NCBI GenBank assembly: GCA_963797095.1
Contig: CAWCNY010000001.1
Span: forward strand, 384,001-448,000
Length of the DNA: 64,000 nt
From: an uncultured Chloroflexia bacterium
GTDB lineage: Bacteria > Chloroflexota > Chloroflexia > QHBQ01 > JADMIH01
Direction: 5' to 3'
Positions 35,928 through 41,690 of this stretch are shown here, piece by piece (within the stretch, counting starts at the first letter, position 1; each line of letters starts with the position of its first letter). Position numbers and translations under genes: made by a program. The notes beneath the pieces were generated by a model. It saw only the letters and a list, made by a program, of their open reading frames with translations. It searched no databases and was not told the DNA's origin.

Positions 35928-36263
35928 ATGCCTCTGACAAAGATAACAGCTAGCTTTCTATACCTGATCTACATAGGCTCCAGTGGGTGGTGCCTGTTGG
36001 CAATATTGGAGCTTGTAGTTCGTATGGGTCATGGTTCTGGTATGTATTCCGATTACGGGAAAAATACTGGTGAGGTAGTTCTTGCTTTTGGATTTCTGGC
36101 CACACTCTTGTTATGGCTGGTAATTGGCACTGTTGTTGGTATCAAAGTGCTGCGTGGACAATTGAGTTCTGAGATGGCTCGGAACTGCAACACTTGGTGC
36201 TGTACTCATCATACTACCACCGACACTAGTATACCTCTTAGGCGTTGGGCACTCTTGAGGTAG
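35928..36263 (+). CDS. Small hypothetical membrane protein (two TM segments)
   Basis: Two hydrophobic stretches; no recognisable motif. Confidence 0.4.
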   Translation: MPLTKITASFLYLIYIGSSGWCLLAILELVVRMGHGSGMYSDYGKNTGEVVLAFGFLATLLLWLVIGTVVGIKVLRGQLSSEMARNCNTWCCTHHTTTDTSIPLRRWALLR

Positions 36264-36301
36264 CTACCTCGGCGCAGTGACGCAACTTCGGAGTAAAAAG
36301 C

Positions 36302-36769
36302 GTGGCAACTCTTCACCTAATGGTTGGACTTCCTTGCTCAGGGAAAACAACGCTTGCCAAGAAGCTTGAACAGGAACGCTCGGCACTCAGATTGACACCC
36401 GATGAGTGGCAGCTTGGTCTCTTTGGGCAAGATGCACAAGAGCCGGAACATGACGCCAGACATAGCTTTATCGAGGCCATGCTTTGGAATATCGCGAGCA
36501 GGGCGTTGGAATTGGGAGCGAACGTCATCCTCGATTTTGGCTTCTGGGCACGAGAAGAACGCGAAGATTTCCGGCAGCGGGCGAAACGAGTGGGAGCCAG
36601 CAGTGAGGTACATTTTCTTGATGTGCCAGCAGAGGAGCTACTGAGGCGGCTTGCTGTCAGGAACTCGCAACCCTCACAGGAGAGCTTCCACATTTCCGGA
36701 GAAAGCATGAAGCTTTGGATAGCGTTTTTCCAGAAGCCGACACCTGAAGAACTTGAACGGAGAGTATAA
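36302..36769 (+). CDS. P-loop AAA_33-type predicted kinase
   Basis: GLPCSGKTT, LTPDEW, VILDFGFWAREER, ELLRRLAVRN. Confidence 0.88.
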   Translation: MATLHLMVGLPCSGKTTLAKKLEQERSALRLTPDEWQLGLFGQDAQEPEHDARHSFIEAMLWNIASRALELGANVILDFGFWAREEREDFRQRAKRVGASSEVHFLDVPAEELLRRLAVRNSQPSQESFHISGESMKLWIAFFQKPTPEELERRV

Positions 36770-36772
36770 CCC

Positions 36773-37243
36773 ATGTTCAAACGGAAAGAAGCATCCAAAC
36801 CGAACCCAGCCCTTGAACCCTTCCATGTATTGATTGGAAGCTGGAGTACGACCGGAACACACGGTCAAGACCCAGGTACTATTCTCCATGGGCATACCTC
36901 GTTCGAATGGCTGGAGAACGGAGCATTTTTGCTGATGCGCTCGGAGATTGACGATCCGCGCTTTCCGAGCGCCGTCGCGATTATTGGCAGCGACGCTGCT
37001 AGAGACGATGCTGAAGGCGAATACTATATGCTCACCTTTGATGAGCGCGGTGTCTCAAGAAAGTATGAAGTTAGCCTGCGCGACAATATCTGGAAATGGT
37101 GGAGAGACGCGCCAGGTTTCCTCCAACGCTATGAGGGTATCATTGAAGACGGCGGTAATACTATAATCAGCAAAGGAGAGTTGTCGAAAGACGGCCTATC
37201 CTGGGAGCAGGATCTCAACTTGACGTACAAGCGGGTTGAGTGA
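36773..37243 (+). CDS. Conserved hypothetical beta-barrel protein (DUF1579-like)
   Basis: LIGSW..SFEWLENGAFL..FDERGVSR..WEQDLNLTYKR; stop codon supplied by the adjacent element. Confidence 0.7.
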   Translation: MFKRKEASKPNPALEPFHVLIGSWSTTGTHGQDPGTILHGHTSFEWLENGAFLLMRSEIDDPRFPSAVAIIGSDAARDDAEGEYYMLTFDERGVSRKYEVSLRDNIWKWWRDAPGFLQRYEGIIEDGGNTIISKGELSKDGLSWEQDLNLTYKRVE

Positions 37244-37460
37244 TGACTCCACGTCGGCTAAAGCCGAGCAGCTTCTACGGACTTTCACCGATGCATACTC
37301 ATCCATATGCAACTAAGGTTTGCACTATAGGAGACACCTGAGATGCTTTTACATGACGCAAGGATTTCTACGTCACAACCCGCTAACATCTTGCATTATC
37401 AAAGTGCGGACTACTACCCGAAGGCAATAGTGGCGTGTAGCATTGGTTAGCTGCCACGCT
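37240..37460 (-). ncRNA. Predicted ~220-nt structured RNA (TnpB omegaRNA-like scaffold) reading out through the right end
   Basis: Extended -10 TGgTATAAT (37467-37475); hairpins CTATTGCC-TTCG-GGTAGTAG, TGACGTAG..CTTGCGTCA, TGCAA..TTGCA; no sizeable ORF on this strand. Confidence 0.6.
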
Positions 37461-37552
37461 ACCCACATTATACCACAAAAGGAGAGACTATGAACGACCT
37501 TTTGTCCGCCTCACCGCAGCCCATAAATGGGCGTGGCTTTAGCAAAACCTCG
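37240..37552 (-). mobile_element. Non-autonomous IS200/IS605-family element (PATE-like) carrying an omegaRNA-like ncRNA
   Basis: Minus strand: TTAC|..AAAG + hairpin GCCCATTTATGGGC (left end); GAAG + hairpin + TCAC (right end), 31/40 identical to the right end at 41651-41690. Confidence 0.82.
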
Positions 37553-37611
37553 GTAAGCAGCAATGAAGTGCGCGTAGGACCGGAGCGCACAACGTAAAGT
37601 AGAGCAACTCG

Positions 37612-38079
37612 ATGACAGACACGTTCGAGACCAAGTTACGTGCAGCACTTGGGAATAGTGGCTCAAGCAGCAGGAACCTTTCGGCCTTCGCGCTAGACAT
37701 CGAGCACTTTATGGAGAAAACGGGACTGTTCTCGCGCATTCAGCTCAAGAAGACCGGAGAACCCAAGCGTGCGCTGCTCATGACCTGTCAGCTCTCCGAC
37801 CCAACCACCCTACCAGACCTGGTAATTGAGAAACTGGCGCAGGTTTGGAACGAAACTCCACTGGGTTGTGGCGGAGAGTACGATGCATACGAGTTCCAGC
37901 ACAGCGCTGAGGACATCCCCATGAGGTTTGTTATTGTAGCGGTCCACGAAGCCCTTGTCACTGGAGAGGTTTTTGTCGCGGGCTTTGCTGAGCGCGAGTT
38001 TGGACCTACGGTGGCCGAGCGCGACGAGGCAGGCACCTTCGACCGTTGGGTATTCGACAAATGTGCATGCACCACCTGA
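37612..38079 (+). CDS. Hypothetical protein
   Basis: 155-aa ORF co-oriented with neighbours; no motif recognised. Confidence 0.5.
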   Translation: MTDTFETKLRAALGNSGSSSRNLSAFALDIEHFMEKTGLFSRIQLKKTGEPKRALLMTCQLSDPTTLPDLVIEKLAQVWNETPLGCGGEYDAYEFQHSAEDIPMRFVIVAVHEALVTGEVFVAGFAEREFGPTVAERDEAGTFDRWVFDKCACTT

Positions 38080-38558
38080 TCCACATCGAGCAGCCAGACG
38101 CGCCCATCTTCAACTTCAGAGCAGCAGCTATAATCCTTGACGGAGAGTGGGTGCTTCTGCACAGGGCTGAGATCGACGATTTCTGGGCACCGCCTGGTGG
38201 GCGCGTGGAGTTGGGCGAGGCAGCAGCAGAGGCGCTCGCTCGTGAGATGCGCGAAGAGACCGGCCTGCAAGTACGTGTCGGGCGGCTCCTCTGGGTGGCA
38301 GAGAGCTTTTTCACGTTCGAGGCTCGTGCCCAGCATGGTATATGCTTCTACTTCCTCGTCCACCTGCCGGAAGGCTCTTCCATCCTGGACAAAGATAAGC
38401 CGTTCGCCGGACAAGAAGAAGAAGGACTGAAGCTGGAGTTCTGCTGGTTCCACCGGAGGGACGTTGCCGATCTCGATGTTCGGCCTGCCTTCCTGAGGGC
38501 TGCATTGCAGGAGCTACCTGATACACTTGTACATATCCTCGATGTTGAAAGAAGATAG
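38061..38558 (+). CDS. NUDIX hydrolase
   Basis: Nudix box GGRVELGEAAAEALAREMREETG. Confidence 0.92.
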   Translation: MCMHHLIHIEQPDAPIFNFRAAAIILDGEWVLLHRAEIDDFWAPPGGRVELGEAAAEALAREMREETGLQVRVGRLLWVAESFFTFEARAQHGICFYFLVHLPEGSSILDKDKPFAGQEEEGLKLEFCWFHRRDVADLDVRPAFLRAALQELPDTLVHILDVERR

Positions 38559-38618
38559 CATCTGACTTCTACCGGCTGCAGGCCAGACCGCCTGACCGCA
38601 GGCCTCACGACGCAACAG

Positions 38619-39641
38619 CTACCAGGCGAGGCTATCCAGATGGTTATGGCCCGAGAGCACGCGAGCAATTCGCTCCCGCGCCGCTGCGCGTACGTCAGGC
38701 GCAGGGTGGTGTGCGTAGAGCGCGAGCTCCCTCTGCATGTCATAGAAGAGCAACCGGTCGTGCAGACGCTCGCCCTCGAACAGTTCCGGATAGGCGCTCC
38801 GCAGCCATCCCGGGACCGCACTGAGAGTGGCCTCGTCGAGCCCTCGCTCGCCAGGTACAGGTGGGTACTCGCCCGCCTTCGCGCACCATCGCAGGATCGT
38901 GTCGAGTTCGACGTCCGCCGGCTGGGCCAACAACTCCGCGAAGTCGACAATGCCCGTGACGCGTCCTTCGTCGACGACCACGTTGGATCCGTGAACGTCG
39001 CCATGGACGAGCACGGGTTCGTCGCCAGCGAACAACGGTTGCCGTTGCTGGATCCAAGCAGTGACCTCCGAGAGGAGGCGTGCGTCGTGACCGGGTTGTC
39101 GCCGGGCGCTCTCGACCGAATGGAGCGCGGCATTCACCACGGGTGGGTGGAACGAGACCCGCGGCTTGCCGGTGAGCGCGTCGGCCAGCCAGGGTGGCAG
39201 CAGGTCCGCCGCGACCGGAACCCGGTGCAGCGCGCGCAGCGCAGTTCCGAGGCTCTCGATCATTGCTTGGCGTGTGGGCACGTCCGCCGCCGGCCACGCG
39301 TCGTGCAGACTTCGGCCGGGCAGACGTTCGCCGATGTACCACGGTCCGTCCGGGCCCTCGCCGTGGCCGAGGAGTTGGGCGTGTGGGACCTTGGTGCCGG
39401 CGAGCAGGTTGATCACGGTAGCCTCGTGCTGAAACGAGTCGCGAAACCGCACGTCGCTCAGTCGTACGACGATTTCGTCTCCTATCCACACGCGGTTAAC
39501 CCAACCGTGCTTCGCAACAAAGCGTCCGGTTGCTGGCAGACCAGCGGCCGCCAGCGTCCGACGTAGGGCCGGATCGTTGGCGGGCTCGTCGATGAACGAT
39601 ACTGACCGGCCGGTCACACCACGCATTCTCACACCACACAC
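38619..39641 (-). CDS. Aminoglycoside-phosphotransferase (APH)-family kinase
   Basis: LRALHRV, LVHGDVHGSNVVV..GIVDF Brenner motif; start uncertain. Confidence 0.85.
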   Translation of the reverse strand: MCGVRMRGVTGRSVSFIDEPANDPALRRTLAAAGLPATGRFVAKHGWVNRVWIGDEIVVRLSDVRFRDSFQHEATVINLLAGTKVPHAQLLGHGEGPDGPWYIGERLPGRSLHDAWPAADVPTRQAMIESLGTALRALHRVPVAADLLPPWLADALTGKPRVSFHPPVVNAALHSVESARRQPGHDARLLSEVTAWIQQRQPLFAGDEPVLVHGDVHGSNVVVDEGRVTGIVDFAELLAQPADVELDTILRWCAKAGEYPPVPGERGLDEATLSAVPGWLRSAYPELFEGERLHDRLLFYDMQRELALYAHHPAPDVRAAARERIARVLSGHNHLDSLAW

Positions 39642-39900
39642 GACCTAACCCGAATCCAAGCCACCTGCAGCCGTCGCCGGTAGAACCCGACGACCGCCTC
39701 CTCTGCTCAAGCGCCTACCCGGAGCGGCAGCTTGCCTGGCCCATCAGTCCGGATAACTTTTACTGTACCTGATGAGCACCCAAACGTCAACTTCCCTCTA
39801 TACGTACCTAGGGCTTACGCATCTAAATGAGAGGCAAACAGCCACGGCGCTCGCAGGCGGATTTGGTAAGATTGCGGTAGCCACATGCAAAGGAGCTATC

Positions 39901-40062
39901 ATGCAATCAAGTGATGACCAATGCGCGGCGCTTGAGCAAAGACTACGAGGTGAAGCCCGCCGTCAGGGAGAGTTGGATTCTGCTGACGATGTGTCATCTG
40001 ATGCTCCAGCGCCTCGGCCCAGCGAGCCACAAACGCCGCGCCCGCCAGCCTCGAGATTGTGA
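39901..40062 (+). CDS. Small hypothetical protein (53 aa)
   Basis: AAGGAG RBS before ATG 39901. Confidence 0.3.
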   Translation: MQSSDDQCAALEQRLRGEARRQGELDSADDVSSDAPAPRPSEPQTPRPPASRL

Positions 40063-40160
40063 CAAGGTTTCCTAACAGCCAATCATGGGCCTACGGCTCA
40101 CCACCAAGGATGAAAATGGGTGTATGCTTACAATCTACAGATTTGGTGCATACTTAGGGC

Positions 40161-40550
40161 ATGGAGTACCAACGAGACGAACACCAAGTCCACCTGATTG
40201 TGTACCACCTTATCTGGTGTCCTAAAAGGCGCAAAAAGGTGCTTGTCAAAGACGTTGCGAAGGACTGCAAGGCTCTCATTCAAGAAGTATGTGCCTCTCA
40301 GGACTGGCAGATATTGGAGCTTGCTATCATGCCGGACCACATTCACTTGTTTGTAAGGGCACGACCTACGGATAGTGCGGCTGATATAGTCGGCAGGATA
40401 AAGGGCAGAACGTCGCACGACCTTAGAGAGAAGTACCCGCACCTGCTGAAACTCCCTAGTCTGTGGACAAGGTCGTACTTTTCGAGCACAGCAGGCAATA
40501 TCTCGGCTGACACCATTCAGAGGTACATAGAGGAGGAGAAGGGTATTTAG
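40161..40550 (+). CDS. tnpA: IS200/IS605 Y1 HUH transposase TnpA
   Basis: YHLIWCPKRR, MPDHIHLFV (HUH), LWTRSYF, IQRYIE (catalytic Y). Confidence 0.95.
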   Translation: MEYQRDEHQVHLIVYHLIWCPKRRKKVLVKDVAKDCKALIQEVCASQDWQILELAIMPDHIHLFVRARPTDSAADIVGRIKGRTSHDLREKYPHLLKLPSLWTRSYFSSTAGNISADTIQRYIEEEKGI

Positions 40551-41624
40551 ATGCTGGTCCGCCGCACCTACAAGTACATCCTTCGTCCTACCAGCAGGCA
40601 AGCACGTCTGTTGCAGCACAACATTGATTTGTGCAGGGAGTTGTACAATGCCGCCCTGCAACACCGTAGGGATGCCTATCGCATGGCAGGAAAGAGCGTT
40701 AGCTTTGCTGAACAATCCTCTGCGCTTGTAGAGTGCAAAGAGCGGAGACCAGACCTTGCCGACGTGTACAGCCAGACGTTGCAGGATGTCCTTCACAGGG
40801 TAGACAAGACCTATAAGGCTTTCTACGCACGTGTGAAGCGTGGCGATAAGGCTGGCTTTCCCCGGTTCCGCTCCTATGACCGGTACGATAGCTTCACCTA
40901 CCCTCAGTTGGGTTGGTCTCTCCAAAACGATAGATTGACGCTCTCCAAGATTGGCACTATCAAGCTGAAGTTGCACTGGCCTGTGCAGGGCAAAGTCAAA
41001 ACCGTACAAGTCAAGCGGGAAGGCAGCAAGTGGTTCGTGTGCTTCTCTGTCGAAACTGAGATACAAGTCCCTATTCATACCGGGCCTGCTGTCGGTATAG
41101 ACGTTGGCTTGGAGCACCTTGCCAACCTTTCTACCGGAGAGCAGGTCGAAAACCCCCGCTACTACCGCCGAGGGCAGAAACGGCTTGCCAAAGCGCAGAG
41201 GCAACTTGCTAAAGCTATTAGTATTAGGATGCATCGGGGGCGTAGGGAGTATCGCAAGCGTGTGGTTAGCTGCCACCGCAAGGTGCGTAACCAACGTGCC
41301 AACTTCTTGCACAAGTTGTCTCTTCGGCTGGTACAGACCTACTCCCTGATTGCGATAGAGAAGTTGTCGGTCAAGGGGTTGGCAGGCGGGATGCTTGCCA
41401 AGGCTGTGAATGATGCAGCGTGGTCTATCTTCACCGCACAACTGAGGTACAAGGCAGAATGCGCCGGTACGCAGTTGGTAGAGGTAGACCCGTCCTACAC
41501 TTCGCAGACCTGCCCAAAGTGCGGCAGCATCCGAAAGAAGGAACTTTCGGAACGTTGGCACCATTGTGATTGTGGCTTTGAGTGTCATAGAGATGTTGCC
41601 GCCGCTATGGTCATTCTTGCATGA
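40551..41624 (+). CDS. tnpB: RNA-guided endonuclease TnpB (357 aa)
   Basis: CRELYNAAL, GFPRF, RuvC GIDVG / IAIEKL / HRDVAAA, TSQTCPKCG..CDCG zinc finger. Confidence 0.95.
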   Translation: MLVRRTYKYILRPTSRQARLLQHNIDLCRELYNAALQHRRDAYRMAGKSVSFAEQSSALVECKERRPDLADVYSQTLQDVLHRVDKTYKAFYARVKRGDKAGFPRFRSYDRYDSFTYPQLGWSLQNDRLTLSKIGTIKLKLHWPVQGKVKTVQVKREGSKWFVCFSVETEIQVPIHTGPAVGIDVGLEHLANLSTGEQVENPRYYRRGQKRLAKAQRQLAKAISIRMHRGRREYRKRVVSCHRKVRNQRANFLHKLSLRLVQTYSLIAIEKLSVKGLAGGMLAKAVNDAAWSIFTAQLRYKAECAGTQLVEVDPSYTSQTCPKCGSIRKKELSERWHHCDCGFECHRDVAAAMVILA

Positions 41625-41690
41625 GGACTATCGTGCATGGGTATCCAATCCCTAGAAGCTACCTGGCTTTAGCCGGTGTAGAGTAGTCAC
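41625..41690 (+). ncRNA. IS200/IS605 right end / 3' part of TnpB omegaRNA
   Basis: GAAG-CTACCTGGC-TTTA-GCCGGTGTAG-AGTAG-TCAC. Confidence 0.8.

Follow-up and report, generated by a model that had tools for sequence, protein, structure and literature searches.

IS608 of Helicobacter pylori is an autonomous element with a Y1 transposase (TnpA), a tnpB gene and subterminal hairpins, and it inserts 3' of TTAC without target duplication. Its right-end motif is TCAA, not TCAC. Genomic islands in tRNA genes and Tn7 downstream of glmS insert at the end of a gene and leave the gene product intact, and they rely on site-specific recombinases or on target selectors, each dedicated to a single locus. Near-identity of the target motif (TAM) and the transposon-encoded motif (TEM), seamless donor joints, and PATEs that carry omegaRNAs are described in the available text of Meers et al. 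2023 (PMC10055086), in which ISGst2 has the TAM TTTAT and the TEM TTCAC; the phrase "stop codon" occurs 0 times in the main text of that paper. IS608 is cited as the mechanistic model there and in PMC7290912. The available text on IStrons (10.1101/2023.11.20.567912) describes IS605-family elements with a group I intron that are spliced out of mRNA. Finally, the available text of Delihas 2009 (PMC2775950) reports IS605B stem-loops that overlap the 3' ends of Borrelia lipoprotein genes and notes similar overlaps for other small repeats. A search of limited scope in open-access papers found no explicit stop-for-stop replacement by an IS200/IS605 element, and the closest description was the IS605B end that overlaps the final 8 nt of a lipoprotein gene in Borrelia (PMC2775950, text as available).

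Here, we analyzed a window of 64,000 nucleotides from an uncultured Chloroflexia bacterium (assembly GCA_963797095.1, contig CAWCNY010000001.1, positions 384,001 to 448,000 of the forward strand), in which a small element sits at the stop codon of a gene. Unprefixed coordinates are positions in the window.

36773..37243, plus strand: host gene, 156 aa, conserved hypothetical, from the list of open reading frames.
37240..37552, minus strand: non-autonomous, PATE-like IS200/IS605 element of 313 bp, defined by its repeat copies, flanks and ends.
37240..37243, minus strand: transposon-encoded motif TCAC (TEM) at the right end, which is G plus TGA on the plus strand.
37553..37556, minus strand: displaced target motif TTAC (TAM), which is G plus TAA on the plus strand, the original last base and stop.
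37568..37590, plus strand: GC-rich hairpin, read directly, 11 nt past the original stop and now 313 bp further from the coding end.

Read directly, the host gene ends with GTT (37235-37237), GAG (37238-37240) and the stop TGA (37241-37243). Read on the opposite strand, the GTGA at 37240-37243 is TCAC and the GTAA at 37553-37556 is TTAC. Removal of 37240-37552 in silico gives GTT GAG TAA GCA. Thus, the element-derived bases of the host gene are the third base of the last codon (G 37240) and the stop itself (TGA, 37241-37243), and because the TCAC end restores G plus TGA, the protein is unchanged. A second TGA follows in frame directly after the first (37244-37246), and the original G-TAA now lies 313 bp downstream of its former position. 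The original prediction held that the gene ends GTT GAG TGA, that deletion restores GAG TAA, and that the insertion is silent because the TCAC end recreates G plus a stop at a TTAC/G-TAA target. Its arithmetic was correct on rereading, and we conclude that the stop-codon swap is confirmed and well supported. The 156-aa host protein matched no family in a Pfam search, and the hairpin at 37568..37590, which has no T run, was not called by a terminator scan. The upstream neighbor (36302-36769) encodes a P-loop kinase like AAA_33/zeta toxin (PF13671, E = 2.6e-28), the downstream neighbor (38046-38558) encodes a NUDIX hydrolase (PF00293), and a 155-aa open reading frame at 37612-38079 matched no family in the Pfam search.

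The element borders were set by alignment of copies, independently of the original prediction. The bacterium's own genome (G000; 6.0 Mb in 8 contigs) holds 10 further copies at 85 to 88% identity; besides the window's, eight are complete (85 to 86%) and two are truncated, and there are several fragments. When the 11 own-genome copies were aligned with their flanks, similarity began exactly at GTGATGACTCC and, in six of the eight complete subfamily-A copies, stopped just before GTAA; the other two read GTAC and GTTG. The element's top strand is the minus strand of the window, on which the element is inserted 3' of TTAC and terminates in TCAC. The order on the top strand is the TTAC flank, the left end with its hairpin, a promoter-like site, a scaffold of about 220 nt, the right-end hairpin and TCAC. 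Terminal inverted repeats are absent, and there are subterminal hairpins at both ends.

37249..37271, minus strand: right-end subterminal hairpin, consensus pairs between columns 208 and 230 of alignment A1, 6 of the 9 pairs showing compensatory changes.
37519..37532, minus strand: core of the left-end subterminal hairpin, GCCCAT-TT-ATGGGC on the top strand, read directly.

The left-end hairpin is kept across family members with changes on both arms, and paired changes in two hairpins set the window copy apart from the near-identical subfamily. All three frames of the top strand are closed by several stops each, and the only open reading frames that overlap the element encode 40 to 66 aa. Family members are also found in other Chloroflexia MAGs and in soil metagenome contigs. 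A search of the genus found the element in 4 of 26 genomes, mostly fragmented MAGs, so absence carries little weight. Right ends are uniform: TCAC terminates the element at 37 of 37 family junctions, under a search pattern that left these bases free. A TTAC (GTAA) flank is present at 14 of the 17 family copies with a visible left flank, plus an autonomous copy on contig C3, and the remaining three copies read GTAC, CAAC and TGAC. The second TGA is limited to a GTGATGA sub-lineage, and other variants read GTGACGG and GTGACAA. An 11-mer scan of the genome with 2 mismatches gave 1,181 mostly chance matches and was dropped. Every defining feature of an IS200/IS605 PATE that was open to testing was found, and we assign the element to a new Chloroflexia family of PATEs within IS200/IS605.

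The site before insertion can be read in relatives. Orthologues of the host gene at 70 to 82% identity occur in 10 of them (L021-L030), and the element is absent from 10 of 10 orthologous loci. The original prediction expected element-free orthologues to end GAG TAA. Nine of the 10 do, followed by sequence homologous to 37557-37590 that includes the GC-rich hairpin directly after the TAA, and the count is 7 of 8 when L025 (= G033) and L030 (= G016), from genomes flagged unpublished, are left out. The tenth, L024, reads GAT TAT, and its reading frame continues. One 189-nt contig (X18, from a soil metatranscriptome) aligns to 37180-37236 and 37553-37679 with CAA between, and its junction reads GTC AAG TAA GCAGC, again with G-TAA at the stop. 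The X18 contig is the unoccupied allele of a near relative. No target duplication was seen at the empty sites of the orthologues or of X18. The X18 contigs come from an RNA library, and transcript strand, ends and level cannot be read from them; runs X1, X2 and X12 cover parts of the stretch and are uninformative on the junction. We note that the X18 contig reaches from the 3' end of the 156-aa gene across the intergenic hairpin into the first part of the next open reading frame (37612-38079). This is a weak hint, with DNA carry-over possible, that the two are cotranscribed where the element is absent. The empty junctions thus have the form that the original prediction gave them, GAG TAA in the orthologues and AAG TAA in X18.

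A potential partner for the small element lies in the same window.

40130..41690, plus strand: autonomous IS605-type element, with tnpA at 40161-40550 and tnpB at 40551-41624.

A Y1 transposase and a TnpB, recognized by matches to PF01797 and PF07282, are encoded at 40161-41624 and at C3:1052864-1054291. From 40130 to its right end, the window tnpA-tnpB element is 99.9% identical to the C3 copy (about 1052700-1054450). At its left end, the C3 copy is flanked by TTAC and matches the small element at 84% identity over 75 nt, and the right ends of the small element and the tnpA-tnpB elements can be aligned. The tnpA-tnpB element is the likely source of a transposase and a nuclease that would act in trans. 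The first 65 nt or so of the window copy (40063-40129) are a diverged left end that adjoins TGAC, not TTAC, and this TGAC holds the TGA stop of a co-oriented 96-aa open reading frame (39772-40062). A TGAC flank is also present at one small-element copy, L054. Outside the window, the same genome carries a decayed tnpB-only element (C1:22058-23461) with its frame broken into three pieces, short tandem repeats translated LCPLCPL and HSAHSAH, and repeated GCTGAGGAGTAT units near the 3' end.

How the swap arose is very probably a matter of the ordinary insertion rule. We propose that a non-autonomous IS200/IS605 element inserted at a TTAC that complements a G-TAA stop and was retained by selection, with no dedicated targeting. 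A Y1 TnpA, presumably supplied in trans by the tnpA-tnpB element, would excise the top strand, and the element would be inserted as single-stranded DNA 3' of a single-stranded TTAC. On the gene strand, the insertion point would fall between the second and third bases of the last sense codon. Here, by chance, the TTAC would have been complementary to the G-TAA that formed the last base and stop of the 156-aa gene. The element would bring its own G plus TGA, which would re-create codon 156 (GAG) and the stop, and the old G plus TAA and the downstream hairpin would be pushed 313 bp away. The host transcript would then read through the element, antisense to the element's RNA. That RNA, if made, would run into the antisense of the gene's last 16 to 20 nt, and after excision, TTAC and that flank would be a TnpB target. 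With no duplication of the target, the original sequence would be regained on excision. TCAC is a near match of the target motif, as TnpA recognizes the two in like manner, and since the complement of the target contains a stop, the TAM/TEM rule would yield stop-for-stop replacement. As stop codons rank among the TTAC sites where an insertion does least harm, insertions there would persist and accumulate, to about one in five copies. The stop swap very probably follows from the known insertion rule, with selection then acting on the insertions. These data give no sign of a dedicated targeting mechanism; only the coincidence with a stop codon is special, and the other steps are standard for the family.

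Junctions were collected family-wide by scanning for the right end without fixing its last seven bases. This found 14 sites in the genome of the window, 19 loci among species-representative genomes and 7 sites on metagenome contigs. L052 (Hymenobacter), L056 (Planctomycetota) and L070 lack GTGA and the rest of the element, were taken as chance matches and were dropped; the remaining junctions, 37 of 37, begin GTGA. L049 and L059 share one flank and were counted once, which leaves 36 unique junctions. At 10 of 37 junctions, the element's TGA closes an in-frame open reading frame with at least 150 codons, and each of the other two frames gives 1 of 37 (Fisher P = 2.6e-4). The 190-codon in-frame open reading frame at L051 was rejected as a gene (no Pfam family, codon score of -62). 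C3:686611 was first counted as a stop case and proved to be a truncation, with a GTTG flank and an empty-site open reading frame 21 codons longer. Genes supported by Pfam or by orthologues are ended by the element's TGA at 7 of 36 unique junctions, and the seven genes are different.

Window: the 156-aa gene, 36773..37243, supported by orthologues.
C3:358043: glutaredoxin-PDZ (Grx-PDZ) protein.
L049: signal peptidase S26.
L060: BrxC/D-like ATPase.
L063: TPR protein.
L066: APH-type kinase, on a contig also present as G016, flagged unpublished.
L069: GH4 glycosidase (hydrolase).

Both flanks are visible in four of the seven, and in these the reconstructed empty site ends one codon later with TAA. 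At L049, L063 and L069, where the left flank is out of view, we deduce the original TAA from the GTAA rule (14 of 17). Nine of 11 Grx-PDZ orthologues end at the homologous residue, which indicates that the length of that protein is unchanged as well. Among complete copies with a visible left flank, 4 of 17 are stop-codon copies.

The background was drawn from the genome with our own simple codon-usage gene caller, which is crude (4,635 genes, 84.5% coverage). The genome has 25,194 TTAC/GTAA sites: 458 G-TAA gene stops (1.8%), 19,142 sites within genes and 5,594 non-genic sites. G-TAA stops are 7.6% of the TTAC sites that interrupt no gene. Seven of 36 unique junctions exceed the 1.8% share of all TTAC sites (binomial P = 3.5e-6) and also the 7.6% share of non-genic sites (P = 0.017), a background in which intergenic DNA is not all neutral. 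When the window copy, which had prompted the finding, was left out, the count was 6 of 35 against 7.6% (P = 0.046). When six junctions scored as genic and the GTTG truncation were removed, the count was 7 of 29 against 7.6% (P = 0.005); loci from relatives were scored with the codon table of the window's genome, and many MAG contigs end within the repeat, a possible source of bias in the copies that are seen. Compared with random TTAC sites, stop codons are a clearly enriched location for the family, and relative to non-genic TTAC sites the enrichment is modest, about 2.5- to 3-fold.

These counts bear on whether the window copy is pure coincidence, a random TTAC insertion in a family with no link to stop codons. 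Within the own genome, that reading fits, as clean stop swaps account for 2 of 14 junctions only and do not differ significantly from the 7.6% background. Across the family it fits poorly: in-frame open reading frames of at least 150 codons number 10 per 37 against 1 per 37 in each other frame, even if L051 looks spurious, and seven different genes with Pfam or orthologue support are involved. We therefore think it most unlikely that the family has no connection with stop codons.

Alternatively, stop codons could be an evolved safe harbor, in which TTAC and TCAC were selected as complements of G plus a stop and the family prefers stop codons as harmless landing pads. The original prediction spoke of such a built-in strategy and expected in-frame G-TAA stops to be enriched among the copies. 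The enrichment was found, as 7 of 36 unique junctions and 4 of 17 complete, flank-visible copies sit at stops. This is 2.5 to 3 times what G-TAA stops contribute to the non-genic TTAC sites and more than a uniform choice of non-genic sites predicts, and the TCAC end is invariant. The strategy itself fared less well. The likeness of TAM and TEM is mechanistic, as both pair with DNA guides beside the hairpins (PMC10055086, in its available text), and four-base motifs rich in T and A often hold stop triplets by composition alone. The second in-frame TGA, moreover, is not conserved, and the P value becomes marginal without the window copy. Insertions into genes also argue against it. Among 13 complete copies analyzed, at least two split long open reading frames on the opposite strand and one truncates a gene. 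The copy at C1:64443-64752 splits a frame into 202 and 115 codons, that at C2:324777-325086 splits one into 163 and 165 codons, and that at C3:686611 cuts off the 21 codons noted above. The C1 and C2 copies are near-identical and presumably recent, which suggests that the family is, or was recently, active and inactivates genes. Thus, the element does not avoid genes, and we consider an evolved preference unlikely. The excess can be explained as what is expected from the similarity of target and end motifs and the removal of harmful insertions. Beyond the observed anatomy, empty site, family-wide TCAC and TTAC motifs, and excess at stops, a built-in strategy is possible but not needed, and insertion by the known rule followed by selection is the reading we retain.

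We note one further feature of the left end. On the plus strand of 37477-37556, a strong ribosome-binding-site-like AAGGAGAGACT is followed by ATG and an outward mini-ORF. Mini-ORFs of 21 to 25 codons are also present in other left ends, for example, at C3:1054387, L053 and L066. In four of six distinct GTAA-flanked sequences, one of which has an in-frame 12-nt insertion, the mini-ORF ends exactly on the TAA of the target, a proportion indistinguishable from the 1 in 3 expected by chance. In the window copy, the mini-ORF is out of frame with the TAA and continues for another 14 codons. The mini-ORF and its putative ribosome-binding site may simply be the complement of the -35 element and spacer of the inward promoter. 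We speculate, with little confidence, that TTAC and TCAC are kept as complements of G plus a stop, that several hundred G-TAA stops serve as preferred and fully reversible landing pads for about one copy in five, roughly threefold over a neutral expectation, and that the left-end mini-ORF limits polarity. If so, ribosomes on the read-through transcript would be kept on it up to the original stop, which would limit polarity on downstream genes.

Whether the element makes an RNA was approached by prediction.

37467..37494, minus strand: sigma-70-like promoter of predicted function, TTCATA, a 16-nt spacer and a TG-extended TATAAT, facing the right end.
37224..37462, minus strand: predicted omegaRNA-like transcript, about 220 nt of scaffold to the right end plus a 16-nt flank-derived "guide" at 37239-37224.

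The promoter-like site scores 10 of 12 (3 sites found versus 0.7 expected), and its -10 region is conserved in the family alignment. Covariation was assessed over 11 distinct family sequences from the own genome, other Chloroflexia MAGs and soil metagenome contigs, and at 26 of 49 consensus pairs both partners have changed with pairing retained. Folded as a single sequence, the window copy alone gives a z score of -2.9. The last 75 nt or so of the element, including the hairpin and terminal TCAC, align with the 3' ends of tnpB elements. The internal 150 nt or so of the scaffold have no counterpart in this genome's tnpB elements, and 36000-39000 gave no Rfam match at E values up to 1. With the internal scaffold unmatched and no Rfam family to assign, we infer the omegaRNA label, and transcription of the RNA and its use by TnpB are likewise presumed from sequence. 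The element has, in its predicted parts, the anatomy of a PATE carrying an omegaRNA, as in Geobacillus. The original prediction had the geometry of this RNA right: a promoter-like site on the minus strand and a covarying RNA that would run through the right end into the antisense of the gene. The predicted guide (37239-37224) is antisense to the last codons of the host gene.

The same geometry could mean that the element is a domesticated regulator, kept because the gene is controlled by an outward RNA that is antisense to the host mRNA at its 3' end. A promoter-like site on the minus strand, a structured RNA through the right end, and complementarity between the first 16 flank bases and the gene's last codons are what such a regulator would have. 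The geometry is identical, however, at every copy and site, whatever the neighbor. Moreover, absence of the element from 10 of 10 orthologous loci indicates that it is recent and not conserved with the gene. Domestication is therefore very unlikely.

The locus matters in several ways. It is a clean, comparatively verified case of a transposon family with a four-base target landing on a gene and leaving the product unaltered. For annotation, the implication is that a transposon can supply the stop codon and a short 3' end of a gene in such genomes, and small IS605 derivatives are thus worth seeking inside "gene ends." For TnpB biology, the predicted guide of such a copy would target the coding end of the host gene, and an excised allele would be cut within the last codons of that gene. 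If the excess at stops were a true preference, it would be a simple sequence-encoded device for avoiding harm, alongside the splicing of IStrons.

Among known systems, the element resembles IS608 in its TTAC target, lack of duplication and subterminal hairpins. Unlike the autonomous IS608, it ends in TCAC, whereas TCAA would give T plus TGA and could change the third base of the last codon. It differs from islands in tRNA genes and from Tn7 in recognizing a four-base motif with about 25,000 occurrences per genome. Similar in design are the PATEs and ISGst-type elements of Geobacillus stearothermophilus, which, in the available text of PMC10055086, are likewise gene-less, carry both hairpin ends and have nearly identical target and end motifs; they also carry an omegaRNA and are mobilized in trans, both of which are predicted here. 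The present family differs from that description in its TAM, TTAC rather than TTTAT, in its Chloroflexia host and in a scaffold without an Rfam match. As in Borrelia (PMC2775950, available text), an IS605 end sequence forms the last bases of the neighboring coding region, but the IS605B cases there are one-end fragments only, with 8 nt of coding sequence derived from the element, and the text shows no empty site and describes no exact stop-for-stop replacement. Finally, the element shares with IStrons an IS605-family route to less harm for the host gene, and while IStrons, as described in the available text (10.1101/2023.11.20.567912), achieve this by splicing, harm is avoided here at the level of DNA, by re-creation of the stop codon.
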